Shown in pieces: positions 5,883-64,000 of a DNA stretch of 64,000 nucleotides. Made by a program: the position numbers and the translations under genes. A model generated the notes under the pieces. The model was not told the origin of the DNA. It did not search any database and was given only the letters and a program-made list of their open reading frames with translations. Positions within the stretch are counted from its first letter, which is position 1; each line of letters opens with the position of its first letter. The DNA lies in the NCBI GenBank assembly GCA_049663345.1, contig JBATDG010000087.1:33695-97694 (forward strand), given 5' to 3'. Source of the stretch: Bacteroidota bacterium. GTDB taxonomy: Bacteria; Bacteroidota; Ignavibacteria; SZUA-365.

Positions 5883-6905
5883 ATGAGAACGGCTGTTATC
5901 ACCGGTACCGGACTGTACGCGCCAGGGGAACCGATTCCGAACTCGGTTTTCAACGAGCGGCATCAGCAGGATATCGATAGCTTCCTTCGGGAGAACCGCA
6001 ACATTCTTCAGCGCTATTACATGGCGGAGGACCAGGCTACATCCGATTTGATCGTGCCGGCGGCAAAGGATGCACTCGCTGAGGCGGGAATCACTGCCAA
6101 GGACCTCGATCTGATCATCGTGTCCACAGACACACCAGACTATATTTCTCCCAGCACGGCTGCTGTGGTTCAGTATCGCCTTGGCGCAGGCAACGCGGGG
6201 GTCTTTGATGTGAACACGGCCTGTGCGGGATTCGTGACTGCCCTCGACATTGCCTGGAAGTACATTCGTTCGGATGAACAATACCGGCACATCCTCGTTG
6301 TCGGGGCATACGGGATGAGCAAATATCTGGATCAGGACGATTACAAAATCGCGACGCTTTTCGCGGACGGGGCCGGTGCCGTCGTGCTCTCCGCTGCAGA
6401 CAGCATGCCGGATGCCGCCGGGCGGTCTTCCGTGGGAGTCCTCGCCTCGACGCTGTACGCGGACGGCAGCTTCCATGACTACATGGGAATTTTCAGCGGG
6501 GGGACGCGCATCCCGGCCTCGCACCAGAGTATTGATGCAAAGGATACTTTACTCCGATTTGCGAAGAAAATTCCTCCCGAAACCAATTCGCAGAACTGGC
6601 CGCGGCTGGTACGGACGGTGCTTGACCGCATCGGCAAAACGCCGCAGGATGTGAAGAAGTATTTTTTCACGCAGATCAACATCAACAGCATTCAACAGAC
6701 GCTCGATTTTCTCGATGTGCCGCATGAACGCTCACATAACGTCATGGATAAATTTGCCTATACCGGCAGTGCCTGCATCCCGATGGCCATCGCCGACGCC
6801 GTCGATGCGCATCGGCTGGACAATGGCGACCTGGTCATGCTCGTAGGTTCAGGCGGCGGCATCTCCATGGCGGCCCTCGCGCTCGAATGGTCCTACACCA
6901 CCTGA
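5883..6905 (+). CDS. 3-oxoacyl-ACP synthase III (FabH-like KAS III)
   Basis: Active-site region NTACAGFVTALDIAW with Cys, 340 aa, and a C-terminal GSGGG motif. Confidence 0.8.
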   Translation: MRTAVITGTGLYAPGEPIPNSVFNERHQQDIDSFLRENRNILQRYYMAEDQATSDLIVPAAKDALAEAGITAKDLDLIIVSTDTPDYISPSTAAVVQYRLGAGNAGVFDVNTACAGFVTALDIAWKYIRSDEQYRHILVVGAYGMSKYLDQDDYKIATLFADGAGAVVLSAADSMPDAAGRSSVGVLASTLYADGSFHDYMGIFSGGTRIPASHQSIDAKDTLLRFAKKIPPETNSQNWPRLVRTVLDRIGKTPQDVKKYFFTQININSIQQTLDFLDVPHERSHNVMDKFAYTGSACIPMAIADAVDAHRLDNGDLVMLVGSGGGISMAALALEWSYTT

Positions 6906-6914: not shown

Positions 6915-8414
6915 ATGAACAGTGAGACGTATTATTCCTGGATAGCATTTTCGGCCTACGCGATCATCATTGCGGGCATCGCGCTATGGTCGCGAAGCCG
7001 GGCGCGTTCGATGGAATCGTTTTCGGTCGGGACGCGGACCGTCAGTCCGTATTTCGTCGGACTGTCCCTCGCGGCCAACATGGCCAGCGCGGCGACTTTC
7101 GTCATCAATCCCGGTCTGATGTATCTTTACGGCTGGGCGGGAATTCTCGGCTACGCCGTCGCTACGCCGCTTGGGATTTTCCTGGCCCTCATCATCCTCA
7201 GCAAGAAGTTTCGCAGCATCGGAGATCGCACACGTGTGATCACAGTGCCGCAGTGGATTGGCGACCGCTTCGGCGCACGCTTTCTTACAGTGTATTTCTC
7301 GGTTCTCTCGCTTCTGCAGATCACCTTTCTCGTGCTGATCGTTGTGGGGCTCTCGGTCGTTTTGCGCAGTACTCTTGGCATCTCCATCGAGACGGCGCTG
7401 CTCGTGGTCGTGGGCTTCACCTTCGGCTACATCCTGCTTGGCGGAGCGAGCGCGCATATTCTCACGAATACAATTCAGGCGACGATAATGATCGTCGTGG
7501 CTCTGCTCCTTATCACATCGGGATTTGAATATTTCAGCGACGGCATTGGAGGGTTCTTTACCCGCCTCAGCGAAGTGTCGCCAAATTTTGCTTCGGCAAC
7601 GAATCCCGATAGCCAGCTGTTCCGTGACTGGTTTGAAGTGTTCGCCGCGAATTTTATCATCGGCATTGCCATTATTCTCCAGCCGCATATTATTTCGAAG
7701 TCGCTTTATCTGCGCACAGAAGCCGATGTCAACCGATATCTCGCAACGGCCATGATAGTCGCGACGCTGTTCTTTGCCGTACTTCTGACCGGTCTGTTCG
7801 CCAGACTTACCCTCGGCGGCGAATTGCTGAAACCCGACACAGTGATCGCGACCTATATCGTACAGGAGTTCTCTCCGCCCATCCGTGCCATTATCGGACT
7901 CGGTATACTCTCCGCTGGATTCTCCACGCTCGAAGGAATTCTCCTCGCGCTCTCATCGATATTCGCCAACGATTTTCTCAAGGGCGTGCTGCCCCGCCGC
8001 ATGACGGATGGGGATGCATGGAAAAAGCGTTCGCTGCGCTACGCGAAAATATTCCTTATTGCCCTCGCGCCTGTGACGCTTCTGCTCTCGCGGGATCAGC
8101 TTCTCCATCCCTCGCTGTCCGTCGCGCTCTTCGCGCAGAACGGCGTGTATGGACTGTTCGCCGCGACATTTGTCCCTGTGCTCTTCGGCGTGTTCACCCA
8201 GCGGGCGACAAAGGGGATGGTGTTCACTGCCTCGCTCGTCGCACTGGCCGTGCACTTCGGCATGTATTATGGGAAATTGACCGTCTACCACAATAATCCC
8301 GCCGTGACCGCAGCTATTGCGCTTATTGCAAGCGTCGCCATCATGCTTGCAATGATGGCAGTTTCACGCTCCACAGAGACTGCACGCTCGGTAGAAAAGG
8401 AGGCGGTCCGATGA
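6915..8414 (+). CDS. Sodium:solute symporter family (SSF) transporter
   Basis: About 13 TM helices with an SSF-like N-terminal pattern. The start overlaps the previous gene's stop region. Confidence 0.6.
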   Translation: MNSETYYSWIAFSAYAIIIAGIALWSRSRARSMESFSVGTRTVSPYFVGLSLAANMASAATFVINPGLMYLYGWAGILGYAVATPLGIFLALIILSKKFRSIGDRTRVITVPQWIGDRFGARFLTVYFSVLSLLQITFLVLIVVGLSVVLRSTLGISIETALLVVVGFTFGYILLGGASAHILTNTIQATIMIVVALLLITSGFEYFSDGIGGFFTRLSEVSPNFASATNPDSQLFRDWFEVFAANFIIGIAIILQPHIISKSLYLRTEADVNRYLATAMIVATLFFAVLLTGLFARLTLGGELLKPDTVIATYIVQEFSPPIRAIIGLGILSAGFSTLEGILLALSSIFANDFLKGVLPRRMTDGDAWKKRSLRYAKIFLIALAPVTLLLSRDQLLHPSLSVALFAQNGVYGLFAATFVPVLFGVFTQRATKGMVFTASLVALAVHFGMYYGKLTVYHNNPAVTAAIALIASVAIMLAMMAVSRSTETARSVEKEAVR

Positions 8415-9943
8415 ATGGCTCCGAAAGCATCCGCACGGACTGGTTCGATCGATGGGCGCTCTATTCCCCGGATCGACTCGCCCTGACGGACGAAGAATCG
8501 GGACGAACCTTCACCTACGCGCAATGCAGCCGCATCATCAACCGGCTCGCGCTTGTACTTCGCGATGAATATAAGGTGACGCACGGTGATCGGATTGCCG
8601 TCCTGGCCACGAATGAAATCGAGTACGTATTCCTTTTCTTCGCAGCTCAGAAAATCAGCGCGATTCTCGTCCCGATCAACTATCGGCTGGCGCCTCGTGA
8701 AATCGGACATATTCTTTCTGATTGCACGCCGGTGCTCTTTTCCTACCAGCGGCAGTTCACGGCAGAAATTGAAGCGCTGCCGAATGGAGTGGCGGATGGA
8801 ATACAGACAACTTCGTTCGATGGTCCCGACAGTCTGACCGCGCGCATGTTCAATGAAGAGCTGCCAGCGAATACTGTGCAGCAGCAAGCCGATTTCGAGA
8901 CACCGGTCATGGTGCTGTATACTTCCGGAACGACGGGGACTCCAAAGGGTGCTGTGATTACACACGGCATGCTGTTCTGGAATTCGGTCAACACGAGCAT
9001 GCGGCTCAATCTCGTTCAGCAGGACGTCACGCTGACGTTCGCTCCGTTTTTCCATACCGGTGGATGGAATGTGCTGACCACCCCGTTTCTGCATCGTGGT
9101 GCGCATATCATTCTTCTGAAGAAATTCGATCCCGAACAGGTGCTGCATCTTTGCGACAGCGCCGGCGTGTCGATACTTTTCGGCGTGCCGACCATGATGG
9201 ATATGATGCATCGCTGCAGCGCGTTCTCCACCGTGTCGCTCGCGACGGTGCGCTATGCCATTGTTGGCGGAGAGCCGATGCCCGCCGATTTGATACGCGC
9301 GTGGCAGGCAAAGGGCGTGCCTATAAGGCTTGGCTACGGATTGACTGAGTTTGGTCCCAACGTGTTTTCCCTTAATGAAGAGGATGCGATACGGAAAATC
9401 GGTTCCATCGGCTTTCCAAATTTCTATGTAGACACGCGTGTGGTTGACGACAGCGGCGAGGACGCTGCTGATGGTGCGGTTGGTGAACTACTGCTTCGCG
9501 GACCCGTGTGTACGCCCGGATACTGGAACAATCCCGAGGCAACGGCCGCCGCTATTCAGGATGGCTGGCTTCGGACAGGCGACCTTGTACGGCGGGACGA
9601 AGACGGCTATTTTTATGTAGTTGACCGCAAGAAGGATATGTTTATCAGCGGTGCAGAGAATGTGTATCCCGCGGAAATCGAACACTTTCTCCGCACACAT
9701 CCTGCAGTCGAAGCTGTTGCCGTTGTGGGTGTCCCTGATGAGAGGTGGGGTGAAGCAGGGAAAGCCTTCGTGGTGCTGCGCAAGGACGCCGTGACGACAG
9801 CGGAAGATCTGCTCGATTTCTGCAAAGGAAATCTGGCGAAATACAAAATTCCGAAGTATGTTGTCTTATTAGATGCTCTTCCGCTGAGCGACAGTGGAAA
9901 GATTCTCAAAAAGAAACTCAGGGCAATAGAAAATGGAAGGTAA
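8411..9943 (+). CDS. AMP-dependent synthetase/ligase (acyl- or aryl-CoA ligase)
   Basis: AMP-binding motif YTSGTTGTPKGAVITH, a GYGLTE motif and a C-terminal KYKIPKYV lysine. The start overlaps the upstream stop by 4 nt. Confidence 0.85.
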   Translation: MNGSESIRTDWFDRWALYSPDRLALTDEESGRTFTYAQCSRIINRLALVLRDEYKVTHGDRIAVLATNEIEYVFLFFAAQKISAILVPINYRLAPREIGHILSDCTPVLFSYQRQFTAEIEALPNGVADGIQTTSFDGPDSLTARMFNEELPANTVQQQADFETPVMVLYTSGTTGTPKGAVITHGMLFWNSVNTSMRLNLVQQDVTLTFAPFFHTGGWNVLTTPFLHRGAHIILLKKFDPEQVLHLCDSAGVSILFGVPTMMDMMHRCSAFSTVSLATVRYAIVGGEPMPADLIRAWQAKGVPIRLGYGLTEFGPNVFSLNEEDAIRKIGSIGFPNFYVDTRVVDDSGEDAADGAVGELLLRGPVCTPGYWNNPEATAAAIQDGWLRTGDLVRRDEDGYFYVVDRKKDMFISGAENVYPAEIEHFLRTHPAVEAVAVVGVPDERWGEAGKAFVVLRKDAVTTAEDLLDFCKGNLAKYKIPKYVVLLDALPLSDSGKILKKKLRAIENGR

Positions 9944-10352
9944 GCGAATGCAGGACATGCAGGTGGGCGACCGCGCGTCGTTTGCCAAAACGGTGAGCGA
10001 ATCTGATGTGTACGGATTCGCCGGCATCACCGGTGACTTTAATCCGGTGCATGTCAACGCGGTGTACGCGGCGGAAAGCATGTTCGAACGCCGCATCGCG
10101 CACGGGATGCTTTATGCCAGCTTTATTTCGACCGTGCTCGGGATGCAGCTGCCCGGTCCGGGTGTGATCTATCTCTCGCAGTCGCTGCGCTTTCTCAAGC
10201 CTGTTTTTATAGGCGATACCGTGACCGCAGAAGTTGAGGTCGCCGAAATGTTTGCGGAGAAAAACCGTGTCCGCTTCCTCACTCGCTGCTTCAACCAGGA
10301 TGCACAGCTCGTGGCGGAAGGGGAATCACTGCTCATGCCCCGAAAAGATTGA
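9933..10352 (+). CDS. MaoC-like (R)-specific enoyl-CoA hydratase/dehydratase (hotdog fold)
   Basis: GITGDFNPVHVNAVYA...RIAHGM motif. The gene overlaps the ligase stop. Confidence 0.8.
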   Translation: MEGKRMQDMQVGDRASFAKTVSESDVYGFAGITGDFNPVHVNAVYAAESMFERRIAHGMLYASFISTVLGMQLPGPGVIYLSQSLRFLKPVFIGDTVTAEVEVAEMFAEKNRVRFLTRCFNQDAQLVAEGESLLMPRKD

Positions 10353-27047: not shown

Positions 27048-30000
27048 ATGATGACTTCGGACGCCCCGCTACATATTTTTCTGATCGAGGATGATCCCGA
27101 ACAGGTTGCGTTTCTGAAAGTGACCTTGCGTACGGAGCAGAATTCAGCGTATTCGTTGACCCATGCCGCGAGTCTGGGTGAGGCCAAAGTACTGCTGGCC
27201 GAATTGAAGCCGGATGTGATTCTTCTTGATCTGCATCTTCCCGACAGTGAGGGGCTTAACACTCCGCGCGAAATTCTCGCCCTCGCTCCGCAAATCCCAA
27301 TCATTATCTATAGCGGCAACACCGATGTAGAGCTCGCGATCGAGGCAGTGCGGCTCGGAGCGCAGGACTACCTCCTCAAGGGCGAGGCGCGCGAACCTCT
27401 GCTGTCCCGCGCCATGCGATATGCGATTGAGCGGAAACACACCGCTCTCGAACTCGAGCAGGCGCACACAATTCTCGAAGAACGCAATGCAGCTTTGGAG
27501 ATTGCGCGCAGCGAACTCCGGTCGGAACGAGACATGTTCGTTTCCGGACCGACAATCCTGTTCAGACGCGATTTCACGACGGGCTTCCCGATCACCTTCG
27601 TTTCGCGCAATGTCTCACAATTCGGTTTTCTGCAGCGCGATCTCATGGTGGAAGGATTCCGATATGATTCGCTGGTATTCAGCGATGATCGCGAGGGGTT
27701 TCGCAATCTGCTCACCGTGCGCCTTAGCGAGGGTATCGAGAATGTCGAACAGGAATACCGGATTCTTGACGCGAGAGGCGAAATCGTCTGGCTTCACGAA
27801 GTGGCGCGGATACAGCGCGGCGCAGACGGAGAGCCCATCGCTCAGCTCGCCTATGTTGTCGACATAACCCGGCGGCGTCAGGCTGAAAAAAGCCTTTCTT
27901 CCACACGAAGGCGCTTCGATACTATCCTCGGCAGTATCAATGAGATTGTCTACGAAATCGATATTCACGGCCGGCTTCTGTATATCAGTCCCGCCATCGA
28001 ACGCATTCTCGGCTGGGAAGCAGATGGATTAATCGGTCAGCCATTTGCGGAACTAGTCGTTGAGGAGCAGCGCGAGGGCTGGGAAGAAAGCTTCGCACGT
28101 ATCGTCAGCGGAACGGTCCTTGCCTGCGAATTCCCATTGAACGCGGCCGACGGTCACGAACATGTGTTCCAGATCTCCGCACGCCGGCAAACCGATGGGA
28201 CTCAGGTCCGCTCTATTGCCGGGGTGCTCACCGATATAACCGACCGCAGGGAAATGGAACATGCCATCCGGAATGTTCGCACTCAGACGCAGCAATATCT
28301 TGACATCGCCGAGGTGGTGTTCCTTTCGCTTGATCTGAGCGGGAGCATCACGCTCATCAATAAAAAGGGTTGTCAGGTTCTGGGCTATAATGAACATGAG
28401 CTCGTGGGGCGGGACTGGTTTGACCTCTGTATTCCTGAGCATATACGGGAGGAGACTCGTGCATTTTTCTTCCGCATCGTCGGTGGGGGTGAGACCCAAA
28501 CAGATGTACACGAAAATGACGTGCGTACCAAATCGGGTGAAGAGCGGCTCCTTCGCTGGCACAATTCGTTGATGCACGATAGCCGCGGCGCTGTGATCGG
28601 GATGCTGAGCAGCGGTGAGGATATTACTGATCGGCGCAGAATCGAACTCGAGGCCAAAGGGTCGCAGGAACTGATCGACCTTGCACTTTGGGGGGCGGAT
28701 CTCGGTGCGTGGGAATGGGATATTCACAACGATAGCATCACACTGAATTCTCGTGCCCTGTCGATGTTGGGCTACGAAGCAGGGCAGCTCCCATTGTTCA
28801 CTCAGCTGCGGGAAGAAACTCTTCCGATAGAAGATGTGAGCCGATTGCAGGAAATGATGAATGCTCATCTCGAAGGGCGTTCACCCTTCTATCAGGCTGA
28901 GACCTGGATAATTTGCCGGAGTGGTGAATGGAAGTGGGTCCTCGAACGCGGGAAAGTCGTGGAATATGATACTGCGGGAGCGCCTCTGAGGGTTGCAGGC
29001 ACCTACCTTGATCTGACCGTGAGAAAATATGCTGAGATCGCACTTGAGGATAGTGAAAAGAAATTCCGTCTTCTTGCGGAAAACTCATCCGATATCATCT
29101 GGACGGTAAATGCCGATTTCGAGCTGACCTTCGTCAGCCCGTCAATCGAATTCGTACTTGGCTTTACGCCTGAAGAAATGATGGATACGGACTTCTTTGA
29201 CGCCATCGATGAAGACTTTTTGAGGGATAAAAAAGAGCAATTTATCACAGCCCTACGGAACTCTGCCGCCCGCCCTCCGCACGATCGTACGCTTCGCATA
29301 GAAGCCCCGTTCGTGAAAAAAGATGGAAGCATCCTTTGGGTCGAGGTCGTTGCAACTCCGATCCTCGACCATGGCGGAAATCTCGTGAGCGTTCACGGCA
29401 ATTCCCGCGACATTCATTATCGCAGAATCGCACAGCAGGGACTTGCCGACAGCGAAGGGAAGTACCGTCTGCTTGTGCAGAACCAGACAGATCTTGTCAT
29501 CAAGATGGATCTTGACGGAAAGTTCCTCTTCGTAAGCCCTTCGTACTGCAGGATGTTTGGCAAGACGGAAAACGAACTCCTGCTGCAGCCGTTTTTCCCG
29601 ATGGTGCATGAGGATGACCGTGCGGCCGCACTCGACGCTATGAAGAAATTGTTCGAGGCGCCTTTCACCAGCTATGTCGAACAGCGTGCCCTGACCCAGG
29701 ATGGCTGGCGATGGCTCGGCTGGCAGGACACTGCTGTCCTGAACGACAATGATGAAGTGGTTGCGATCATTGGAGTAGGGCGCGACGTGACCGAGCGCCG
29801 TATGGCAGAACGAGCGCTTATTGATAGCGAGAAGCGCCTCCGTACAGTAATCTCCAACCTTCCAGTCATCATGTTCACGCTGAATAAGGATGGGAAATTC
29901 ACCATGTCGGAGGGTATGGGACTCGAATCCCTCGGACTGACATCAGGGCAGGTCGTGGGTCTTTCGGCATTTGATGTTTATGCTAATAATCCCGACGTAG

Positions 30001-32021
30001 TCGCGGGTCTCCGCCGTGCCATCGGAGGTGAGGCTTTTGTCGCCGCGGTGGAAGTCGAAGGGAAGTCGTTCGAGACATGGTATTCGCCGGTGTTCGGCGA
30101 CGGCGGGGAGGTCGAACACGTCATTGGTGTCGCTGTCGACATCACAAGCCGGAAGAAGACTGAACAGGAGCTCGCCCAGTACCGCGATCATCTTGAAGAA
30201 TTGGTCGAGGCGCGGACACTGGAACTCGAGCGTGCTAATGAGCGGCTGAAGCGATTCCGCTTTGCACTTGACAGCGCGGCCGACAACATCTACATCATCG
30301 ATCCGGAAACGATGAAGTATGTGGATCTCAACGAAAGCGCCGTCGAGGCTCTTGGATATGAACGTGAAGAATTGCTGACCATGGGTCCGTACGACGTGCA
30401 GGTGCATTCCGAAAAACAGGAGCATATGGAAACCTATGCTAAGGTGCGCGGGGGCACTCTCGAGGTCGGGATTTTTGAGACAGAGCATATGAAGAAAGAC
30501 GGCAGCCGCTTCCCTGTCGAGGTGTTTGTCCGCGCCTTCGAATCCGGTGATGCCCGGCTCCTCATCGCAACTGCTCGCGATGTCTCTCGCCGCCGCGCCG
30601 CTGAGCTGGCGCTGAAGGAATCCGAGGCGAAGTATCGCAACGTGTTGGAAAACGCGAATGAAGCCATCATCGTGCTTCAGGATAATCTGCTGCGTTTCTA
30701 CAATTACAAAGTCCTAGAGCTGACAGGTCTCTCTGATGCCGCTCTCAAGGATCTCCCCATCTTCGAATTTGTGCATCCTGATGATCACGCGCTACTTCGC
30801 CGCCAATATCAGGAGAGAGTCCGCGGCGGACTTCTGCCCGAGAGCTACGACGTAAGGATGTACGACAGCAACGGCACGATCAAGTGGATGGAAGTGCGCG
30901 ATGTGCTCATCACGTGGGACGGCAAGCCCGCGACACTGAATTTCTTCAACGACATCACAGCCAGGAAATATGCGGAGGATTACATCCGCTTCCAGGCTTC
31001 ACTGCTGAGCATCGTTCGCAACTCGGTTGTGGCACTTGACCAATCGGGCCGCGTTACCTATTGGAATTCCTTCGCGGAGACACTTTTCGGGTGGACCGCA
31101 CAGGAAGTCCAGGGCAGGAAGCTGAATGAATTCCCTACCTTCGGTCCCGAGTTCGAAACCGAGCTGCTTCCCTCAGTGAGAGCTCGCGGTCATTGGGAAG
31201 GCGAAGGCGAACTGCAGCGCAGCGATGGCACAATGCTCTCCGTGTATTCGATGTGGACCGTCATTATTCAGGACGATCAGCTGCGCGGCTACGTGGGAAT
31301 CGGTATGGATCTGTCGGAGAGGAAAAAGCTCGAGAAGGAATTGCTGCAATCCCAGAAGCTCGCCTCGCTCGGCATTCTATCCGAAGGCATTGCGCATGAA
31401 TTGAGGAATCCGCTAGGTTATGCCAGTTCCGCCGCCCAGCTCCTGATATCAAAAAAGGATCTGACCGAGGAGCAGCGGAAGAAATACAGCACAGTGATCC
31501 ACACAGGCGTTGACCGGGCGAATAAAATCGTCGAAAACCTGCTTCTCATCGGCAAGCCCAAGGGGCAGCTGATGAAAAAATCGCTCAATCTGATTGACAC
31601 TGTTCGTGAAGCGCTTTCCCTGATCTCCTCGCATCACAACGCCGCTGGCGTTCACATCGAGAAGCAATTCGAAGCAAAGGAACTCCTCGTGCTGGGAAAC
31701 AGGGAGATTCTCATACAACTCTTTTACAACCTGTTCACCAACGCTCTCGATGCCATGGCTGGCAGCGGAACGCTGCGGATTTGCGGTGAGCAGAAGAAAG
31801 GGCATGTCTATATCCGCGTCAGCGATACTGGTCCCGGTGTTCCCGAGCATATCGTAGAAAACATTTTCGATCCCTTCTTTACGACCTCCAAAACCGACAA
31901 AGGCGTCGGGCTTGGCCTCACGCTCTGCTATTTCATCATGGACGACCATGAAGGCCGTATCGAGCTGGATACCACAGCAGAAACAGGTGCAGCGTTCATT
32001 TTAATCTTCCCGGCCGTGTGA
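27048..32021 (+). CDS. Giant hybrid sensor histidine kinase (1657 aa): N-terminal receiver, at least 8 PAS/PAC repeats, HisKA and HATPase_c
   Basis: REC (LLDLHLPD), repeated PAS-like blocks, H-box LASLGILSEGIAHELRNPL, and N/G boxes near the C-terminus. Confidence 0.85.
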   Translation: MMTSDAPLHIFLIEDDPEQVAFLKVTLRTEQNSAYSLTHAASLGEAKVLLAELKPDVILLDLHLPDSEGLNTPREILALAPQIPIIIYSGNTDVELAIEAVRLGAQDYLLKGEAREPLLSRAMRYAIERKHTALELEQAHTILEERNAALEIARSELRSERDMFVSGPTILFRRDFTTGFPITFVSRNVSQFGFLQRDLMVEGFRYDSLVFSDDREGFRNLLTVRLSEGIENVEQEYRILDARGEIVWLHEVARIQRGADGEPIAQLAYVVDITRRRQAEKSLSSTRRRFDTILGSINEIVYEIDIHGRLLYISPAIERILGWEADGLIGQPFAELVVEEQREGWEESFARIVSGTVLACEFPLNAADGHEHVFQISARRQTDGTQVRSIAGVLTDITDRREMEHAIRNVRTQTQQYLDIAEVVFLSLDLSGSITLINKKGCQVLGYNEHELVGRDWFDLCIPEHIREETRAFFFRIVGGGETQTDVHENDVRTKSGEERLLRWHNSLMHDSRGAVIGMLSSGEDITDRRRIELEAKGSQELIDLALWGADLGAWEWDIHNDSITLNSRALSMLGYEAGQLPLFTQLREETLPIEDVSRLQEMMNAHLEGRSPFYQAETWIICRSGEWKWVLERGKVVEYDTAGAPLRVAGTYLDLTVRKYAEIALEDSEKKFRLLAENSSDIIWTVNADFELTFVSPSIEFVLGFTPEEMMDTDFFDAIDEDFLRDKKEQFITALRNSAARPPHDRTLRIEAPFVKKDGSILWVEVVATPILDHGGNLVSVHGNSRDIHYRRIAQQGLADSEGKYRLLVQNQTDLVIKMDLDGKFLFVSPSYCRMFGKTENELLLQPFFPMVHEDDRAAALDAMKKLFEAPFTSYVEQRALTQDGWRWLGWQDTAVLNDNDEVVAIIGVGRDVTERRMAERALIDSEKRLRTVISNLPVIMFTLNKDGKFTMSEGMGLESLGLTSGQVVGLSAFDVYANNPDVVAGLRRAIGGEAFVAAVEVEGKSFETWYSPVFGDGGEVEHVIGVAVDITSRKKTEQELAQYRDHLEELVEARTLELERANERLKRFRFALDSAADNIYIIDPETMKYVDLNESAVEALGYEREELLTMGPYDVQVHSEKQEHMETYAKVRGGTLEVGIFETEHMKKDGSRFPVEVFVRAFESGDARLLIATARDVSRRRAAELALKESEAKYRNVLENANEAIIVLQDNLLRFYNYKVLELTGLSDAALKDLPIFEFVHPDDHALLRRQYQERVRGGLLPESYDVRMYDSNGTIKWMEVRDVLITWDGKPATLNFFNDITARKYAEDYIRFQASLLSIVRNSVVALDQSGRVTYWNSFAETLFGWTAQEVQGRKLNEFPTFGPEFETELLPSVRARGHWEGEGELQRSDGTMLSVYSMWTVIIQDDQLRGYVGIGMDLSERKKLEKELLQSQKLASLGILSEGIAHELRNPLGYASSAAQLLISKKDLTEEQRKKYSTVIHTGVDRANKIVENLLLIGKPKGQLMKKSLNLIDTVREALSLISSHHNAAGVHIEKQFEAKELLVLGNREILIQLFYNLFTNALDAMAGSGTLRICGEQKKGHVYIRVSDTGPGVPEHIVENIFDPFFTTSKTDKGVGLGLTLCYFIMDDHEGRIELDTTAETGAAFILIFPAV

Positions 32022-43416: not shown

Positions 43417-45504
43417 ATGGCTGAGACGAAACATGTTCCGTTCGTCCCTGCGGACTCGGATATGAAGGAGTTCACGCTTCGCGCGTTGCTCATCGGTCTC
43501 GTTCTCGCTGTCGTGCTTGGTGCGGCGAATGCATACCTTGGCCTCAAGGCCGGTATGACTATCGCTGCGACCTATCCGGCCGCGGTTATCGGCATGGCCT
43601 TGCTCAAGGCCTTGAAGGGAACGATTCTGGAAGAGAACATGGCGCGAACCGTCGGCTCCATCGGCGAATCCGTCGCAGCAGGCGCGATTTTTACGCTGCC
43701 CGCATTCTTCGTCGCCGGCATCTGGCCGGAGTTCTTTACGACGTCGAATTACATCACCTCAACATTGATCCTGATTTCCGGCGGTGTGCTGGGAATCATG
43801 TTCGTCGCACTTCTGCGGCGAGTGATGGTTGAGGATCCGGAACTCCCGTATCCGGAATCCGTTGCAGCAGCGGAAATTCATAAGGCCGGTCGCGGCGGCG
43901 GCGGCGGATCAAAGTACCTTTTTGGTGCGATGCTCGGCGGCGCCCTCGTCAAAGCACTTGGAGAATTCAATGTTTTCCTTCCGCTGTGGGAACGCTTTAT
44001 TACGTTCTCAAAGACGACGATCACCGGCTTGGAAAAAATTCCTCTGGCTTCGGGCGGCGAAGGTGTCGCAGGAACCGGCGGTATGGTGCTGACCTCTTTC
44101 AAGATCAGTCCTGCCTATGTCGGCGTCGGCTACATTATCGGCCCGAAACTCGCGTCGCTGAACTTCTCCGGCGGTATTATCGCCTGGGGACTTCTCACGC
44201 CCATCATTCTTTATTTCATCGCTCCGTATTTGAACATCGACGGGATGGTGGCTGCCATCATGGCAGCGGATCCTGGCACCACGCTGACCGGTGCGACGGA
44301 GAAGGCATGGATTGACTCCGCGTATGCAGTCTGGAAATTTATCGTACGGCCGATTGCAATCGGTGGTATGCTCGTCGGCGCATCGTTCACGCTGTTCCGT
44401 ATGCGAAACAGTCTTACGGCGGGTATCGCGCGTTCGATCAGCGATGTGAAGAAAGCCGCCTCAGGCAACGCAGCCGATATTGATCGCACGGAGAAGGATA
44501 TCCCCTTCACCTGGACGCTGACCGGTATCTTCGGTGTTGCCGTAGCGACCTTCCTGATCACATTCTACCTTTTCAACACGACGTTCCTGGTCGCCTTTGT
44601 TGCCTCGACGGTAATGATTATCCTGGCGTTTTTCTTCGCTGCGGTATCCGGCTACCTCGTTGGAATCATGGGCTCGAGCAACAACCCGATCAGCGGACTG
44701 ACACTGACCGCCCTGGTCGTAACGGCCCTTATCATGGTGGTGCTCGGTGTTGAAGAAACACAGGGAGTCGCAGCGGTTCTCGGCGTTGCAGCAATTGTAT
44801 GCGTTGCTGCGGCTGTCGCAGGCGAAATGCTGCAGGATCTGAAGGCCGGACATATCCTCGGCGGTACGCCATGGAAAATGGAAATCGGCGACATCATTGG
44901 CGTCGTCCTTGCCGGCATCGTCATGTTTATGGTGCTGGTCTTCCTGAATGACGGTGATATCGCCGCCGGTAAAGTTGCAGGCTATGTCGGCGGTTTCGGC
45001 AGCCGCGAGCTTCCGGCACCGCAGGCGAGTCTCATGGCCATCCTCTCGCGCGGCATCGTCGAACAGCAGATGGCCTGGCCTCTGATTATCGTTGGTATGC
45101 TCATGGGTGCATCGTTCATCTTTATGCAGGTCAAGAGCCCGATGCTCGTCAGCGTCGGTATGTACCTGCCGCTGGAGACAACCTTTGCCATCTTCATCGG
45201 TGGCCTGATGAAAGGCGCAGTTGATATGTACAAGGCAAAGCGCAAGGTTAATGCTGCGCAGGATGCAAGAATCGAGAACACCGGTGTTTTACTTGCCTCC
45301 GGTCTTATTGCCGGAGAGGCGCTTGTGGGGCTTGTATTCGCGGGCTTTGCCGCGTTTGAGATGTTCCCTGGCAAGGTGTTCGAGAATCCGTCCTTCATCG
45401 TCAGTCTTGCCGTTATGGCAGTTATCGGCTGGGTGCTCATCCGCCTTCCGATGAACAATGCCGGCAGTCCCGACGAACCCGCACCGCCCACCGCGGCGCA
45501 CTAA
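43417..45504 (+). CDS. OPT-family oligopeptide transporter
   Basis: 695 aa with about 16 TM helices and a GGGGGS loop. The architecture is typical of the OPT family. Confidence 0.65.
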   Translation: MAETKHVPFVPADSDMKEFTLRALLIGLVLAVVLGAANAYLGLKAGMTIAATYPAAVIGMALLKALKGTILEENMARTVGSIGESVAAGAIFTLPAFFVAGIWPEFFTTSNYITSTLILISGGVLGIMFVALLRRVMVEDPELPYPESVAAAEIHKAGRGGGGGSKYLFGAMLGGALVKALGEFNVFLPLWERFITFSKTTITGLEKIPLASGGEGVAGTGGMVLTSFKISPAYVGVGYIIGPKLASLNFSGGIIAWGLLTPIILYFIAPYLNIDGMVAAIMAADPGTTLTGATEKAWIDSAYAVWKFIVRPIAIGGMLVGASFTLFRMRNSLTAGIARSISDVKKAASGNAADIDRTEKDIPFTWTLTGIFGVAVATFLITFYLFNTTFLVAFVASTVMIILAFFFAAVSGYLVGIMGSSNNPISGLTLTALVVTALIMVVLGVEETQGVAAVLGVAAIVCVAAAVAGEMLQDLKAGHILGGTPWKMEIGDIIGVVLAGIVMFMVLVFLNDGDIAAGKVAGYVGGFGSRELPAPQASLMAILSRGIVEQQMAWPLIIVGMLMGASFIFMQVKSPMLVSVGMYLPLETTFAIFIGGLMKGAVDMYKAKRKVNAAQDARIENTGVLLASGLIAGEALVGLVFAGFAAFEMFPGKVFENPSFIVSLAVMAVIGWVLIRLPMNNAGSPDEPAPPTAAH

Positions 45505-45633: not shown

Positions 45634-46017
45634 ATGTTCGGTAAAAAGAAAGCAGAAGAAGAAGCACTCAACCTTCTTGAATTGGTGCCTCGCCGCAAGC
45701 GGGAGTTTGAAGTAGACGAAAACAATGTCGTTACGGTCATGATGCCGCGCTTTGAGAACCCCTGGATGCTGAAGAGCTTTGTCCCACGGTGGAAAAGTCC
45801 CTATGTGCGAACGAAACTCGATGACGTCGGCTCGTTTGTCTGGCTGCAATGCGATGGGGAGACGCCCGTCGAAATTATTGCCGAGCGCATGCGCGAACAT
45901 TTCGGTGAAAAAATTGAACCGGCGCATGAACGGCTGAAATTCTTCTTCCAGATGCTCACGCGCCGCACCTGGCTGACGCTGCATCACGCCGACGGCACCG
46001 AGATTTTCAAATCCTGA
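45634..46017 (+). CDS. Standalone PqqD-like (RiPP recognition element, RRE) family protein
   Basis: LDDVGSFVWLQCDGETPVEIIAERMREHFG...RLKFFFQML matches the PqqD winged-helix pattern. Confidence 0.55.
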   Translation: MFGKKKAEEEALNLLELVPRRKREFEVDENNVVTVMMPRFENPWMLKSFVPRWKSPYVRTKLDDVGSFVWLQCDGETPVEIIAERMREHFGEKIEPAHERLKFFFQMLTRRTWLTLHHADGTEIFKS

Positions 46018-46187: not shown

Positions 46188-47516
46188 TCAGGCGACTCCG
46201 GTTTTTGTCGTTATCGTCTCGAGTCCGTGTCCGTTGGGTCCAAGTTCGCGGCGGCGCAGCCTCCAGGCAACGAGGAACCCGATAAAGCCGAGGATGCTGA
46301 AAATCCACATACCCAGCGTATAGCCGTCGGGATTAGCGGCGCTGGCTCCGGAATAATCGTTCGCCCAACCGATGGCAATATTGAAACCGGCGAGTCCGAT
46401 ATTCTGGATCATCGTCATCAGGCCATACGCAGTTCCCAGCCGTGAACCGTCCACCAGATACGTTACGGAAGGCCACATAACGGCGGGAACCAGCGAGAAG
46501 GCAATTCCCATCATCGCCATGGGGATATAGAGGGAGATATCGAGGTAGGCCATCATGAGATAGACCGGAATGATGAGCACGGAACCGAACATCATCATTA
46601 ATGAGCGCTTGCCGACTTTGTCAGCCAGAAGTCCGAATAACGGAGTAGCAATCATTGCGAACAGCGTCAGCATGCTGGAAAGGAAGCCGCCTGTCTCACG
46701 CGATACACCATGTGTGTGCTGGAAAAACTTGATTGCAAAAGTCTGGAACGGGAACATGGCGGAATAGAAAGTGATGCAGAGTGCGACGACCAACCAGTAG
46801 GAGGTACTGAATTTGAAAATGTCTTTCAGCGCTACCTTGTCGGTATCTCCGGTACTCCCGAGGTTGTAGCGCTTTGTGGCATAATTGTCCTGCGCAAAAT
46901 ACAGCAGCGCTGCAGCGACGCAGATGACGCCCGCACCCACGGAAAGCAGCAGCGGTGATTGCCAATCTGCATACATCGGTTTCGCCCAGGAGGGAGAATT
47001 CAATGCGGCGAAAGATCCAAGTCTGGCAATGGTGAGATTCAATCCAAAAGCAAAACTGAGCTCCTTGCCTTTAAACCAACGAGCAAGCGAAGTCGTCACG
47101 GCGACAATCAGAGATTCAGCTCCCAATCCGAAAATCAGTCGACCAGCAGCCATCATCGTCAGCTCTCCCGAGGAAGCGGTCACTGCCGCGCCGACGAAAC
47201 AGAGCACGGCGAATATGAGAATCGATTTTTTCGTGCCGATTCTGTCAATGATGATGCCGCCGATCAGTACCATGAGAATATTCGGAATACTGTAAATGGC
47301 ATTCAGCATGCCGATGTTTGAATCGGAGAAGCCGAGCTGCGTCGAGAGGACATCAGCGAGCGGGCTGATGCTGTCGTAGATATAGTAATTGCCGAACATC
47401 GCCAGACTGATCACCACCAGCACCATCCAACGGAACGCAGGAGGAGGTGCAGGCAGCGTTGACGAACTGTTTGCAGGAATTTGGCTCATCGTTGTGTTTC
47501 TCCTTGTTGCGGTCAA
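46188..47516 (-). CDS. MFS transporter
   Basis: 12 TM helices and MFS-type loop motifs. Confidence 0.7.
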   Translation of the reverse strand: MTATRRNTTMSQIPANSSSTLPAPPPAFRWMVLVVISLAMFGNYYIYDSISPLADVLSTQLGFSDSNIGMLNAIYSIPNILMVLIGGIIIDRIGTKKSILIFAVLCFVGAAVTASSGELTMMAAGRLIFGLGAESLIVAVTTSLARWFKGKELSFAFGLNLTIARLGSFAALNSPSWAKPMYADWQSPLLLSVGAGVICVAAALLYFAQDNYATKRYNLGSTGDTDKVALKDIFKFSTSYWLVVALCITFYSAMFPFQTFAIKFFQHTHGVSRETGGFLSSMLTLFAMIATPLFGLLADKVGKRSLMMMFGSVLIIPVYLMMAYLDISLYIPMAMMGIAFSLVPAVMWPSVTYLVDGSRLGTAYGLMTMIQNIGLAGFNIAIGWANDYSGASAANPDGYTLGMWIFSILGFIGFLVAWRLRRRELGPNGHGLETITTKTGVA

Positions 47517-60066: not shown

Positions 60067-60837
60067 CTAGAAAATGATGAGCCAGAGTGCATAGTCAAGA
60101 ATCAGGATCATTGCGGAGGAGAGTACGAAGGAGCGTATTGTGGAAAGCCCGACGCCTTCAGCACCGCCGCTGGTTTTGAAGCCGATATGGCAGCCGAGAA
60201 TTGATGTGACTCCCCCGAACGCGATCGATTTGATTATGCCTGAAAAGATGTCCTTACTCTGAAAAAACCGCTCAACACTGCCGAAAAACACCTGTGAGGT
60301 CAGCCCGAGAAAGAAATTCGAAACCAGGTATGCCCCGATAAGTGCGACGCTGTTGGCGAAAATCACGAGTACCGGCATCATTATTACTGCCCCGAGAAAA
60401 CGCGGCATGGCGAGGTAGCGTACCGGATCGATGGCCATGCTTTCGAGTGCGTCGATCTGTTCGGTGACCTTCATCGTGCCGAGCTCGGCTGCAATCGAGG
60501 CGCCGACGCGTCCGGCAATGACAATGGCAGTGAGCACGGGTCCCAACTCAATAAAAATTGCGCGGCTGACTGCGCCGCCGATTAGTGAAAAACTGATCAT
60601 TCCCTGAAATTGATAGGCTGCCTGCCACGCAGAGACCATGCCGGTGAATAATCCGATGATGAGCACGAGCGGCAGTGACCCGACACCGATATGTGCCATT
60701 TGCGCTATTACAAGACGTCGATCGCGGATCAGGCGATGCATGCTGCGAAACACCTTGACCTGCAGCAGAGCCACCTGACCGATCTCTGTGAAAAAGCGTA
60801 TCGTCCGGCGTCCGATAATGTCAATTCCGAATGTCAT
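60067..60837 (-). CDS. mlaE: MlaE/Ttg2B-family ABC transporter permease
   Basis: 256 aa, 5-6 TM helices and a conserved MlaE N-terminus (...QVALLQVKVF...). Confidence 0.65.
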   Translation of the reverse strand: MTFGIDIIGRRTIRFFTEIGQVALLQVKVFRSMHRLIRDRRLVIAQMAHIGVGSLPLVLIIGLFTGMVSAWQAAYQFQGMISFSLIGGAVSRAIFIELGPVLTAIVIAGRVGASIAAELGTMKVTEQIDALESMAIDPVRYLAMPRFLGAVIMMPVLVIFANSVALIGAYLVSNFFLGLTSQVFFGSVERFFQSKDIFSGIIKSIAFGGVTSILGCHIGFKTSGGAEGVGLSTIRSFVLSSAMILILDYALWLIIF

Positions 60838-60898: not shown

Positions 60899-61912
60899 TC
60901 ACCGGTAAATGCGGAGACCTTCCGTGCAGTTGCGGCAAATGGGAATATCGCGGCGGCCGTTGAGTACGCGGTTGCGGAAGTCATGGTATTTCTCGGATTG
61001 CCACACTTCATCGAAGCTGTTTTCCTCGAGGGAGCCCAGAGGATACTCCGCATTTTTGTCAAAACAGCAGGGCACGACAACGCCGTCCCAGGTGATGACG
61101 CTGCGCTCCCAGAGTCGGACGCAGCGATTGTGCAGGCCGCTTTTGGGCTGCAGCTCTCCGTCGACGATTCGATAACGGCTGTAGCGCTCGTCGCGCGGGA
61201 GAAAGCGCTCGGCACTTTCGATAGAATACACCTGCATGGTTTTGAGCGCGACATCGGCATCGTGCGTCTGCGCCAGCGACCGCAGCTGTGGGAGCTGCGC
61301 TTCGTTCTGTCGGGTGACAAGAAGCTGCAGCGTGAGTTCCGTGGTGGCGCTGCGGCCAAGTACGCGTCGGACGGCATCCACATGCGCGAGCGCATCATGC
61401 ACTTTCTGCAAGGAACCGCCCACGCGATATTCTTCATAGACTTCCTGTGTGAGTCCGTCGATGGATACGATAAGGCGATCGAGTCCGGCGCGCAGAAGCG
61501 CATCAACAATTTCGCGGCGGAGAAAATGCGCGTTGGTGCTGATCGATACGAAAATCCGTTTCGAACGGGCATAGGCGATCATGTCCACCAACTGGTTGTT
61601 GATGAACGGCTCTCCCTGAAAGAAAAGTTGAAGGTAGAAAACGTCCCTGGAAATTTCGTCCACAATTTGGCGGAAGTGTTCGAGGTCCATCATGCCGAGG
61701 GGACGCACCATTTCGCCGTTGCCAGAGGGACACTCCGGACATTTCAAATTGCAGCGATTCGTGGGTTCGATAGTGAGGGTGTAGGGCCGTCCCCAGACAA
61801 CGCTCCGGCCGCGGCGGACCGAAAGTTGATAGGAAAGACCGACGAGCAGCAGGTTCCAAGCGCGGCGAAAACTGAAGCAGCGTGTGAGATTGCGGAGAGT
61901 CCGCAGTGTCAT
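60899..61912 (-). CDS. Radical SAM enzyme with a C-terminal SPASM/twitch-like auxiliary-cluster domain
   Basis: CNLKCPEC (Cx3Cx2C) in the N-terminal third. C-terminal GVVVPCCFD...CRNC cysteine cluster. Confidence 0.75.
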   Translation of the reverse strand: MTLRTLRNLTRCFSFRRAWNLLLVGLSYQLSVRRGRSVVWGRPYTLTIEPTNRCNLKCPECPSGNGEMVRPLGMMDLEHFRQIVDEISRDVFYLQLFFQGEPFINNQLVDMIAYARSKRIFVSISTNAHFLRREIVDALLRAGLDRLIVSIDGLTQEVYEEYRVGGSLQKVHDALAHVDAVRRVLGRSATTELTLQLLVTRQNEAQLPQLRSLAQTHDADVALKTMQVYSIESAERFLPRDERYSRYRIVDGELQPKSGLHNRCVRLWERSVITWDGVVVPCCFDKNAEYPLGSLEENSFDEVWQSEKYHDFRNRVLNGRRDIPICRNCTEGLRIYR

Positions 61913-62772
61913 CAGTTATCCTTTCTGCAGATCAGATACCAGGTCGGATTGAACCAGGTGTTGAAGAGTCCGGGCTCATCGCTCACGAGCCGGAGGACGA
62001 AATTTTTCAGGCCGCTGCTCTTCAGCAGCGATACCATTCGGAGGTGTCCTGTACTCCAAACCAGAGCTTCCGGACGAACAAAAAGCATTTGCGCCATCTG
62101 GCGGTTGATAAACGAGGCGTGGAGGCCGCTGTGCTTCAGCAGTCCGGTGAGTTCCGGGAAGCTGAACAGCTGCGCCAGATCTTCACGATCGGCATCGGCA
62201 GGACGCTTTTTCCTGAGCAGCGGACGCAATTTCTCACGCGTCTTCAGGCTGGCAAACGGCAGTCCGAAATGCGGATCGGAAACAATGTTGGAAAGGGCTT
62301 TCCGGTTCGGCGTGCTGAGGTAGAGCAGTCCTTCCGGCGTCAGTACTCGCGTGATTTCCTCAAGCACGCGCGATGGATCAACGACATGCTCGAGCACATC
62401 CTGCAGCACGATGGCATCGAAAGACGCATCCGGATACGGCAGTTCATCCAGAGCCGTCAGATCGGTTTCGATGTCCGGCAGACTTTCATTCAGTGCAGCG
62501 ATGCGGTCGGGATCGCAATCCACGGCTATGACATCCGCGCCGCGGGCGTAGAGCGCCGCGCTGGTCCCGCCGACGCCGCATCCGGCGTCCAGCACAACAG
62601 CGCCGTCGATGGTCATGAATTCGGAGAGGGCTCCGCATACCGCATCGCCCCGAAGCCGGGCATGATCGATGGCACGCTGCCAACGATCATAGTTCGGATG
62701 CGTGTTGTCGAGAGTGTATGTCGATTCGAATGTCGTTTCTATCACGGGATTACCAACGCGGCGGTTTGACAA
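61912..62772 (-). CDS. Class I SAM-dependent methyltransferase
   Basis: Motif I VLDAGCGVGG. Its stop overlaps the radical-SAM start by 1 nt. Confidence 0.75.
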   Translation of the reverse strand: MSNRRVGNPVIETTFESTYTLDNTHPNYDRWQRAIDHARLRGDAVCGALSEFMTIDGAVVLDAGCGVGGTSAALYARGADVIAVDCDPDRIAALNESLPDIETDLTALDELPYPDASFDAIVLQDVLEHVVDPSRVLEEITRVLTPEGLLYLSTPNRKALSNIVSDPHFGLPFASLKTREKLRPLLRKKRPADADREDLAQLFSFPELTGLLKHSGLHASFINRQMAQMLFVRPEALVWSTGHLRMVSLLKSSGLKNFVLRLVSDEPGLFNTWFNPTWYLICRKDN

Positions 62773-63859
62773 AAGACGTGAAACCGGTCAATGTTGAAAA
62801 GAAAATATGGAATCCTTCCCAAAACGCAAGACGAAATCTGCCGGCCTTGCTTTCATTCCAACGAAATGCATGCTGCAGAAAGCCCACATCATACCACAAT
62901 TTCCAAAACCACAAGATGAGTGGGATCACCCGTTCCGGCCCCTGGATGAAGATAGTGAGGGCGATTACTGCGAGGGGGGTGAGTCCTTCGCTGATGACGA
63001 ACAACGCGAGCAGAATAGCGGCACGGCCTCGATAGGCGGCGGATACGCGATAGTGGCGGAGCTTCTGCCTGAAAAGATCTCTCCAGGTTTCCAGTGCTGG
63101 TGAAACAACTATGGCGTCCTGCTGCACACAGACTCCAACGCTTGCGCCATGCCGCAGCATCTGCTGCAGCAGTAAATCATCATCGCCGCCGAGGTGAGCG
63201 TAGATCGAAGGGAGGCCTCCGCATTTTTCGTACATCGTGCGCGAAAATGCCCAGCTGCGGCCGCTCGCCATATACGGAAAACCGGAAGCAGCAGCGGCGA
63301 CGGCAAGCGTGGCTGTGCGCCGTGATTCGAATGCCGCATACGCCGAGGCGCCGCCTTTTCCGGCGGAGAGCGGTGCGAGTCCAATCACAGCATCAATGCC
63401 TTCCGCAAATGCGGATACCATGCCGCGGATCCACGATGAACGGGGAATGCAATCTGCATCGGTGAATAGCAGGAGTTCATGCGACGCGGCCATGATCCCG
63501 GCATGGAGCGCATGCTTCTTGGGTGAAACTCCATCGGGTACCGCATCGATACGGAGAATGCTCAAGGGCAGAGACTCGCTATATCGGAGTGTAGAGTCCG
63601 CTGTTCCGTCATTGGAGCGATCATCCACGATGATGATTTCGAGCAGCTCGCGCGGATAGTCCTGCGCCTCGAGTGCATCGAGCAGTTTCGGCAGCGTCCC
63701 GCATTCATTGTGCGCGGCGACGATGACCGAGACCGGCCTGAGCTCAATGCGTACGGGCGGCTTTCTCAATGCCCGCATCCATCCCCGATACGTGAAGACG
63801 AAGAAGGCTGAACTGAGCACGGCGCATAATACGGCGATTATCTGGAGGACGATGATCAT
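62750..63859 (-). CDS. Family-2 glycosyltransferase (GT2) with C-terminal TM helices
   Basis: An N-terminal TM helix, the motif IIVDDRSNDGT, and DxD-like DAD. It overlaps the methyltransferase start by 23 nt. Confidence 0.75.
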   Translation of the reverse strand: MIIVLQIIAVLCAVLSSAFFVFTYRGWMRALRKPPVRIELRPVSVIVAAHNECGTLPKLLDALEAQDYPRELLEIIIVDDRSNDGTADSTLRYSESLPLSILRIDAVPDGVSPKKHALHAGIMAASHELLLFTDADCIPRSSWIRGMVSAFAEGIDAVIGLAPLSAGKGGASAYAAFESRRTATLAVAAAASGFPYMASGRSWAFSRTMYEKCGGLPSIYAHLGGDDDLLLQQMLRHGASVGVCVQQDAIVVSPALETWRDLFRQKLRHYRVSAAYRGRAAILLALFVISEGLTPLAVIALTIFIQGPERVIPLILWFWKLWYDVGFLQHAFRWNESKAGRFRLAFWEGFHIFFSTLTGFTSFVKPPRW

Positions 63860-64000
63860 GACGGAATCTCTTTCGCATCGCGGACGGCGCGCAGCATCGG
63901 CGGGGTCAGCCAGGCATTGGCGACCAGGCGTCCCGTCACGAGCGCGATGGCGGCAGCGACGGCTCCGACCGCATCGAAAACCATGATGGCGATCGCGAGC
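63856..64000 (-). CDS. 3' end of a further minus-strand membrane-protein gene in the same operon (partial)
   Basis: The minus-strand frame is open from the window edge to the TGA at 63856..63858. The protein ends ...LVANAWLTPPMLRAVRDAKEIPS. Confidence 0.35.
   Translation of the reverse strand, partial: LAIAIMVFDAVGAVAAAIALVTGRLVANAWLTPPMLRAVRDAKEIPS

Follow-up and report, generated by a model that had tools for sequence, protein, structure and literature searches.

The window analysed here is a stretch of 64,000 nucleotides from contig JBATDG010000087.1 of a Bacteroidota bacterium (Ignavibacteria, SZUA-365). At its right end lie three adjacent minus-strand genes which encode, in the order of transcription, a family 2 glycosyltransferase (GT2), a class I S-adenosylmethionine (SAM) methyltransferase and a radical SAM enzyme. 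An earlier reading, made from the letters alone (the sequence-only reading), had described this trio as a translationally coupled operon. The open reading frames (ORFs), Pfam matches and a direct reading of the gene junctions confirmed the calls of all three genes, the domains assigned to them and their close coupling. As argued below, the trio probably acts in the synthesis and tailoring of an envelope glycoconjugate. The coordinates of all features are reported in Table 1. All genes were scanned against NCBIfam and Pfam; only the MlaE-family permease encoded downstream of the trio scored above an equivalog cut-off.

The methyltransferase and radical SAM genes overlap by 1 nt (TGATG), and the gene upstream of the trio, which encodes a multi-pass membrane protein, overlaps the GT2 gene by 4 nt (ATGA); both overlaps had been reported in the sequence-only reading. 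The third one reported there, 23 nt between the GT2 and methyltransferase genes, requires the TTG codon at 62772 as the methyltransferase start. An in-frame GTG at 62745, located 4 nt past the GT2 stop and called as the start by NCBI, is the alternative. Because the methyltransferase genes of relatives start directly after the GT2 stop, as seen by comparison of start codons, the GTG is more probably the start, in which case a 4-nt gap takes the place of the overlap. The trio is tightly packed under either start.

No terminator-like site was found inside the trio or in the spacer between the radical SAM gene and mlaE, and an Rfam scan of the 21-kb locus returned no RNA element. A promoter scan also gave no match; it used the sigma-70 consensus, for which a blank result is expected in Bacteroidota. 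The gaps flanking the trio are 40-260 nt long, and no small gene is conserved in them, either at the window locus or in relatives. The absence of an adjacent precursor peptide or RiPP recognition element (RRE; RiPP, ribosomally synthesised and post-translationally modified peptide), noted from the sequence alone, is borne out by the lack of any conserved small ORF near the trio and of any Pfam domain before residue 48 of the radical SAM protein.

Table 1. Coordinates of the trio, its neighbours, other features of the window and the loci used for comparison. Positions refer to the window or to the locus named in the second column.
Feature	Sequence	Position	Strand	Remarks
Radical SAM gene	window	60899-61912	minus	337 aa; ORF list and sequence
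Class I SAM methyltransferase gene	window	61912-62772 or 61912-62745	minus	286 aa (TTG start) or 277 aa (GTG start)
GT2 gene	window	62750-63859	minus	369 aa; ORF list and sequence
Upstream transporter gene, 3' end	window	63856-64000	minus	460-aa multi-pass membrane protein; extends beyond the window end
Upstream transporter gene, complete	L001	6675-8057		460 aa
Terminator-like hairpin	L001	6491-6515		11-bp stem, T8 tail
MlaE-family lipid ABC transporter permease	window	60067-60837	minus	NCBIfam TIGR00056, 219 bits vs cut-off 212
OPT-family oligopeptide transporter (PqqD block)	window	43417-45504	plus
PqqD-domain gene (PqqD block)	window	45634-46017	plus	127 aa, stand-alone
MFS gene (PqqD block)	window	46188-47516	minus
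PMT_2 glycosyltransferase	window	901-2754	plus	617 aa; GT-C, ArnT/PMT-like; C-terminal TPR repeats
Aromatic amino acid lyase	window	3380-4915	minus
KAS III-type ketosynthase	window	5883-6905	plus
SSF transporter	window	6915-8414	plus
AMP-dependent ligase	window	8411-9943	plus
MaoC dehydratase	window	about 9950-10350	plus
Hybrid sensor	window	27048-32021	plus	1657 aa; receiver domain, many PAS domains
Insert between GT2 and methyltransferase genes	L085	3898-6162		754 aa
Composite locus	L122	5983-10537		methyltransferase, radical SAM, flippase-like, GT2, CE4 deacetylase
Composite locus	L123	5980-10528		methyltransferase, radical SAM, flippase-like, GT2, CE4 deacetylase
Composite locus	L140	4784-8932		GT2, methyltransferase, flippase-like, GT2
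Composite locus	L147	4727-12464		GT2, methyltransferase, radical SAM, flippase-like, CE4, Wzi-like, GT2
GT2-radical SAM fusion P0505	L171	7001-8899		632 aa

The GT2 protein matches Pfam families PF00535 (Glycos_transf_2, 70 bits), PF13641 (Glyco_tranf_2_3) and PF13506 (Glyco_transf_21). Its AlphaFold2 (AF2) model, with a predicted local distance difference test score (pLDDT) of 94, predicts one N-terminal transmembrane (TM) helix, a GT-A domain, an interface helix and 3-4 C-terminal TM helices. The motifs DD80, TDAD134-136 and GGDDDLL225-229 were recognized, and D80, D134-A-D136 and GDDD226-228 are invariant in the family, which therefore carries the DxD signature of GT-A enzymes. Among solved structures, the sequence matches PcManGT (PDB 6yv7) at 4e-18, and Foldseek retrieved PcManGT (6e-15), hyaluronan synthases (query TM-score, TMq, 0.76) and BcsA. 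The membrane GT-A fold, the interface helix and the C-terminal TM helices are shared with PcManGT and with hyaluronan and cellulose synthases, at 12-21% identity, whereas the QxxRW motif is replaced by QKLRH265-269. More generally, the Q(Q/R)xRW motif of processive synthases is not found in the window GT2 family, which has QKxRH instead, with an invariant arginine and a histidine present in 29 of 29 sequences in one alignment (A3) and in at least 28 of 29 in another (A4). An invariant C-terminal RW also occurs in this family. As judged from the model, the protein is a membrane-embedded, cellulose-synthase-like enzyme. Its top NCBIfam match is MftF (80 bits vs 280), and the only models aligned over nearly the full length are those of two lipid glycosyltransferases, CruG and HpnI, whose cut-offs were missed by far.

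The methyltransferase matches Methyltransf_11, _23 and _25 in Pfam, and its top NCBIfam match is the DVU_1556 family, with 72.5 bits vs a cut-off of 155. A Rossmann core is followed by about 120 family-specific C-terminal residues, with the motifs DPHFGLP, RPxDAxRxDL and VW..H. Solved structures (UbiG, PEAMT and others) match the core only, and the conserved C-terminal 120 residues found no match among them.

The radical SAM protein matches Pfam Radical_SAM with 61 bits and SPASM with 65 bits, and carries, within a partial TIM-barrel core, the CxxxCxxC motif by which the superfamily binds its SAM-cleaving [4Fe-4S] cluster, here as CNLKCPEC (C54, C58 and C61). Its N-terminus is a conserved extension of 40 residues, folded in the AF2 model (pLDDT 86) into two helices and, as modelled, too small for an RRE. 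Cysteine conservation was evaluated on alignments of 23 homologues and, later, of 92. Eight cysteines are conserved across the 92 sequences, six of them in all and C326 and C329 in 99%. The C-terminal ones are five only (C264, C282, C283, C326 and C329), arranged as C264-x12-G277-x4-C282 (plus C283) ... C326-x2-C329. A full SPASM domain, with two auxiliary clusters, was defined by the seven-cysteine motif CX9-15GX4C ... CX2CX5CX3C ... C, of which CX5CX3C and the final cysteine are missing here. Pfam PF13186 still matches the protein, because the model spans the part common to twitch domains.

The best match of the family profile among solved structures in the PDB is BtrN (E 1e-19, both domains aligned). 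BtrN has one auxiliary [4Fe-4S] cluster, bound by four ligands, onto which C264, C282, C326 and C329 align; the NCBIfam model N_Twi_rSAM aligns to residues 263-331. Since only the first half of the SPASM motif is kept, and on the strength of the ligand alignment to BtrN, the enzyme is assigned from its sequence to the twitch type (truncated SPASM), with one predicted auxiliary cluster plus the invariant Cys283. Of the SPASM domain described in the sequence-only reading, the Pfam match survives and the full cysteine set does not. The accompanying premise, that SPASM enzymes mostly modify peptides, has little weight here, because only the truncated twitch set is present. BtrN, the founding twitch radical SAM enzyme, is a carbohydrate dehydrogenase (2-deoxy-scyllo-inosamine dehydrogenase of the butirosin pathway) and works on a carbohydrate-like substrate, with neither peptide nor RRE; like BtrN, DesII and BlsE act on sugars.

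The radical SAM enzyme stays below the cut-off of every NCBIfam model. The top match is W_rSAM_matur, a tungsten-cofactor maturase (116 vs 380 bits), followed by a Geobacter metalloenzyme maturase, MftC and PqqE. Membership in a housekeeping family, such as anSME or a cofactor biosynthesis enzyme, had been named in the sequence-only reading as what would speak against a tailoring role. No curated cut-off was reached for anSME, MoaA, PqqE or heme d1 synthesis, the scores being 60 vs 284 for MoaA, 71 vs 381 for PqqE and 59-66 vs 500-650 for NirJ/AhbD.

The GT2, methyltransferase and radical SAM genes are found in identical order in about 12 related loci (L004-L006, L084-L086 and L092-L095, with partial copies on the short contigs L091, L093, L096 and L097), where the radical SAM proteins are 50-88% identical; an identical radical SAM protein, with the same neighbours, occurs on three contigs. 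Both genes, methyltransferase and radical SAM, are present in 16 independent loci, and in every one of these the stop of the former overlaps the start of the latter (ATGA, GTGA or TGATG); the distant L122, L123 and L147, at about 40% identity, are among them. The surroundings of the trio vary. In L004, L006, L092, L094 and L095, gatB lies upstream and mlaE/clpC downstream; in L086, gatB lies upstream and a SpoIIE/GAF gene downstream; in L084, the trio is followed by a gene of 258 aa and a SpoIIE-like gene. In L085, where mlaE/clpC are again downstream, a 754-aa multi-TM/TPR gene separates the GT2 and methyltransferase genes. The arrangement of the trio exceeds chance.

The L085 insert overlaps both of its neighbours and encodes a protein rich in TM helices, with a TPR region at the C-terminus; no Pfam family was matched, except for a weak TPR match. 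A relationship to the PMT_2/TPR protein encoded near the left end of the window was considered and rejected, only the TPR part being similar (E 0.01).

The radical SAM family extends well beyond these loci. In GTDB species genomes it gave at least 600 pattern matches, with at least 599 confirmed by tblastn, mostly in Bacteroidota and Ignavibacteria, and 1270 cluster representatives (50% clustering) were obtained at E<=1e-30. Gene contexts were surveyed in the best 80 of the at least 599 genome loci, and fall into four types, which match four clades of a neighbour-joining tree. The first is the trio of the window clade. In the second, found in 13 Ignavibacteria loci, the genes stand in the order radical SAM, LPG_synthase_TM flippase-like, PgaC-like GT2, the last with the motif QQRKRW. 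The third is made of composite metagenome loci (Table 1), in which the methyltransferase and, in three of the four listed, the radical SAM gene are joined by a flippase-like gene, a PgaC-like second GT2 gene and, in L122, L123 and L147, a carbohydrate esterase family 4 (CE4) deacetylase gene. In the fourth, typical of Bacteroidia (Chitinophagaceae, Algoriphagus, Lewinella, Flectobacillus and others), the radical SAM gene is solitary.

Two further sets of loci bear on the association. A search based on the methyltransferase showed that the GT2-methyltransferase pair is conserved in about 45 metagenome loci. The protein P0505, in turn, is a single polypeptide in which a GT2 domain and a radical SAM domain are fused; it is 38% identical to the window enzyme and has the same cysteines. 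P0505 is flanked by two class I methyltransferase genes, within an O-antigen-like cluster. This cluster includes family 4 glycosyltransferases (GT4s), Wzx, a PMT_2 protein, a DegT-type aminotransferase and, for the modification of nucleotide sugars, genes of the epimerase/dehydratase type and Methyltransf_13/14 methyltransferases. The core conserved across lineages consists of the GT2-methyltransferase pair and the methyltransferase-radical SAM pair, and not always of three genes.

From sequence and genomic context, and with enzyme activities that are predicted, we conclude that the trio is probably one functional unit, which would produce and tailor an envelope glycoconjugate associated with the membrane. 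The target would be the head group of a glycolipid or a short glycan linked to a lipid, and not a peptide. The radical SAM enzyme is placed on a membrane-made glycoconjugate because its linkage to the other genes recurs in several gene orders, its coupling to the methyltransferase gene is universal, a fusion to a GT2 exists and the partners are glycan or lipid genes only. Of the substrates suggested in the sequence-only reading (a glycolipid or glycan, or a peptide), the glycolipid or glycan is the one favoured by the GT2, flippase-like and CE4 neighbours and by the fusion.

In such a pathway, the GT2 would work on the cytoplasmic side of the membrane, where it would transfer a sugar from a nucleotide sugar onto a lipid, and the methyltransferase would O- or N-methylate the sugar added. 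The twitch enzyme, kept by translational coupling at a constant ratio to the methyltransferase, would abstract a hydrogen from a sugar carbon, leading to oxidation, epimerisation, deoxygenation or ring contraction, with the single auxiliary [4Fe-4S] cluster as a possible electron acceptor, as in BtrN. The invariant Cys283 lies beside a cluster ligand and may donate a hydrogen atom, which would favour epimerisation. This role is suggested by analogy with NeoN and HygY, which use a cysteine in that way: according to PMC10991966, Cys249 is the hydrogen donor of the sugar epimerase NeoN, and a title cited there states that mutating the single cysteine of the twitch enzyme HygY reveals dehydrogenase activity. 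Confidence in the specific radical chemistry is low; the acceptor, the sugar, the order of the steps, the site of methylation and the outcome of the radical reaction are as we infer them here.

Several observations weigh against an envelope glycoconjugate as the product of the trio or favour its strongest rival, mere co-location, by which three independent housekeeping genes would share a mixed operon and the radical SAM enzyme would have a separate, widespread cellular role. The family of this enzyme is broad and mostly solitary, and most homologues from Bacteroidia have neither a GT2 nor a methyltransferase gene within 8 kb. Most of the GT2-methyltransferase pairs, those of about 40 loci, lack the radical SAM gene and sit in a nucleoside-salvage context, with cdd, tdk, nupC, secDF and the gene of a purine nucleoside phosphorylase downstream; the three genes need therefore not always act jointly. 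Homologues of the GT2 in Cytophagales adjoin tgt/lptFG and a gene for an extracytoplasmic function (ECF) sigma factor, with neither partner, and the trio itself lies amid the housekeeping genes gatB, mlaE, clpC and an lptB-like gene. A search of the window and L001 (72 kb of the genome) for the partners seen in the composite loci (flippase-like, second GT2 and CE4) found none, the GT2 domain of P0505 is of the soluble type and not similar to the window GT2, the methyltransferase matches, being generic Rossmann ones, give no hint of a substrate, and the source clade is uncultured. Co-location is nevertheless judged unlikely, given that the genes are linked in at least four orders across lineages sharing only about 40% identity, that the start-stop overlap of the methyltransferase and radical SAM genes is universal, that a GT2-radical SAM fusion exists and that the flanks vary while the trio remains whole.

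A processive GT2 was also considered, in which case the trio would make a secreted, methylated and radically modified exo- or oligosaccharide, similar to poly-N-acetylglucosamine (PNAG) or to a Nod factor. The fold matches to hyaluronan and cellulose synthases, with TMq up to 0.76, point in this direction, as does the PgaC-like partner GT2 of the composite loci, which has an intact QQRKRW, lies beside CE4 and is accompanied in L147 by a Wzi-like capsule-assembly protein; the O-antigen-like cluster around P0505 adds to this. A GT2, a CE4 deacetylase and an N-methyltransferase together follow the logic of NodC, NodB and NodS. The window GT2 family has QKxRH, not QxxRW, and its size is minimal, comparable to that of PcManGT, which is not processive; moreover, no CE4, porin, Wzi or second GT2 gene lies near the window trio. 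We regard this as quite unlikely. It is a sub-variant of the synthesis and tailoring of an envelope glycoconjugate, and suits the composite loci better than the window.

Modification of a RiPP or protein, in which the radical SAM enzyme would cross-link or epimerise a peptide to be then glycosylated and methylated, with a stand-alone PqqD protein acting in trans, finds some favour in the Pfam SPASM match, in the fold neighbours SuiB, SkfB, PqqE and anSME, and in the 127-aa PqqD gene, a homologue of which is only 3.3 kb away from the radical SAM gene in L084 and L086. This reading is nevertheless highly unlikely, as there is neither a fused RRE nor a conserved small ORF beside the trio, the cysteines are of the twitch type and not the seven-cysteine SPASM set typical of RiPP maturases, the PqqD gene is 15 kb off in a separate block and was not found in the other radical SAM loci fetched, and the remaining linked genes all concern glycans or lipids.

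Mycofactocin (MftC/MftF/MftM) and arsenosugars (ArsS/ArsM plus a TIGR04283 transferase) are also made with these three classes of enzyme, so that the composition of the trio is not unprecedented. By sequence comparison, it belongs to neither system. MftF is the top NCBIfam match of the GT2, and MftC and MftM are also among the matches, with scores of 79.6 vs 280 for MftF, 76.7 vs 265 for MftC and 27.5 vs 200 for MftM. MftA, MftB, MftD and MftE were not found in the gene tables (about 8-64 kb of the window and 8 kb beyond its end) or among four ORFs of the first 7 kb scanned with Pfam, and MftC is a radical SAM/SPASM enzyme, whereas the window enzyme is of the twitch type and not full SPASM. 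For the arsenosugar system, TIGR04283 scored 42.2 vs 182 and the ArsM models at most 33 bits vs 240-263, and ArsS, which has a Cys-rich C-terminal domain of its own, is absent from the 25 best radical SAM matches (the lowest at 37 bits).

Closer in logic are HpnI/HpnK/HpnJ and the archaeal calditol synthase Cds, in which radical SAM enzymes remodel the sugar head groups of lipids (PMC13459092). As in the Hpn module, a membrane GT2 would place a sugar onto a lipid, to be remodelled by a radical SAM enzyme, and a deacetylase is added in the relatives L122, L123 and L147; the window GT2 can be aligned to the HpnI model over almost its full length. However, HpnI scored 36.7 vs a cut-off of 310 and HpnB 59.3 vs 379, and HpnJ does not appear among the top matches of the radical SAM enzyme. 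On model scores, the HpnI/HpnJ/HpnK hopanoid module is not present at the locus; no genome-wide search for squalene-hopene cyclase was made. The window unit differs also in having a methyltransferase, and the deacetylase of the relatives belongs to CE4, according to Pfam. HpnK is a deacetylase of the YdjC-like type, unlike CE4, and Bacteroidota are not known to produce hopanoids.

The sequence-only reading had not recognised the trio as a described system. No curated model and no paper in the literature searched describes this unit, or assigns a function to the radical SAM family; what has precedent is the joint use of the three enzyme classes, and the type of pathway, radical SAM tailoring of a membrane glycoconjugate, is familiar.

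The 460-aa protein encoded upstream of the trio, complete in L001, has no Pfam match, and some of its homologues carry MatE or ANKH matches or names like 'O-antigen/teichoic acid export'. Its gene is the further upstream one noted in the sequence-only reading for its overlap with the GT2 gene. The overlap is real, and the transporter is conserved independently of the trio: gatB is interposed between it and the GT2 gene in L004, L006 and L086, and homologues still about 60% identical, in Melioribacteraceae and Calditrichia, have unrelated neighbours (L172 and L173). An obligate role in the system was therefore rejected, and this MOP/MATE/ANKH-like transporter is probably a neighbour, possibly co-transcribed. 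Upstream of its gene and outside the window, a strong hairpin resembling an intrinsic terminator separates it from the gene of a Kelch protein sorted by the type IX secretion system (T9SS); it likely marks the start of the transcription unit containing the trio.

On the other side, the mlaE gene follows the radical SAM gene by 61 nt on the same strand, with clpC next, and is possibly co-transcribed with the trio. It is found downstream of the radical SAM gene in L004, L006, L085, L092, L094 and L095, and not in L084 or L086. The permease gene thus sits between the radical SAM gene and clpC, without adjacent MlaF or MlaD, and is kept there in six relatives.

Of two PqqD-like domains placed elsewhere in the window by the sequence-only reading, one could be verified, and a second was sought and not found. 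The verified gene, directly behind that of the OPT-family transporter and beside the MFS gene, belongs to a separate conserved block which comprises NAD kinase, thioredoxin-like, OPT, PqqD, MFS and SpoIIE/GAF genes. Near the left end of the window, the gene of the PMT_2 glycosyltransferase precedes a group of lyase, ketosynthase, SSF transporter, ligase and MaoC genes (3380 to about 10350), which could be an aryl-lipid or small polyketide-like cluster. The large hybrid sensor gene is flanked by those of sigma-54 activators.

The radical SAM enzyme of the window belongs to a large uncharacterised family, abundant in Bacteroidota, for which the window clade offers the clearest genomic clue to function. 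A match to the Pfam SPASM family alone should not, on this evidence, lead to annotation as a RiPP maturase. A concrete hypothesis of a non-peptide substrate for a twitch enzyme is provided to enzymologists, and a target towards a new envelope component to lipid and glycan chemists. A more far-reaching proposal sees in the trio the compact version of an envelope-lipid pathway that would be widespread in Bacteroidota and Ignavibacteria and new to the literature, and in which the twitch enzyme would produce a new sugar head group, for example a carbocyclic, or a keto or epimerised, methylated one. We consider it rather unlikely. If true, it would provide a bacterial counterpart to calditol or to the cyclitol ethers of hopanoids; both the lipid class and the radical SAM reaction would be new, and would occur in a highly abundant environmental phylum.

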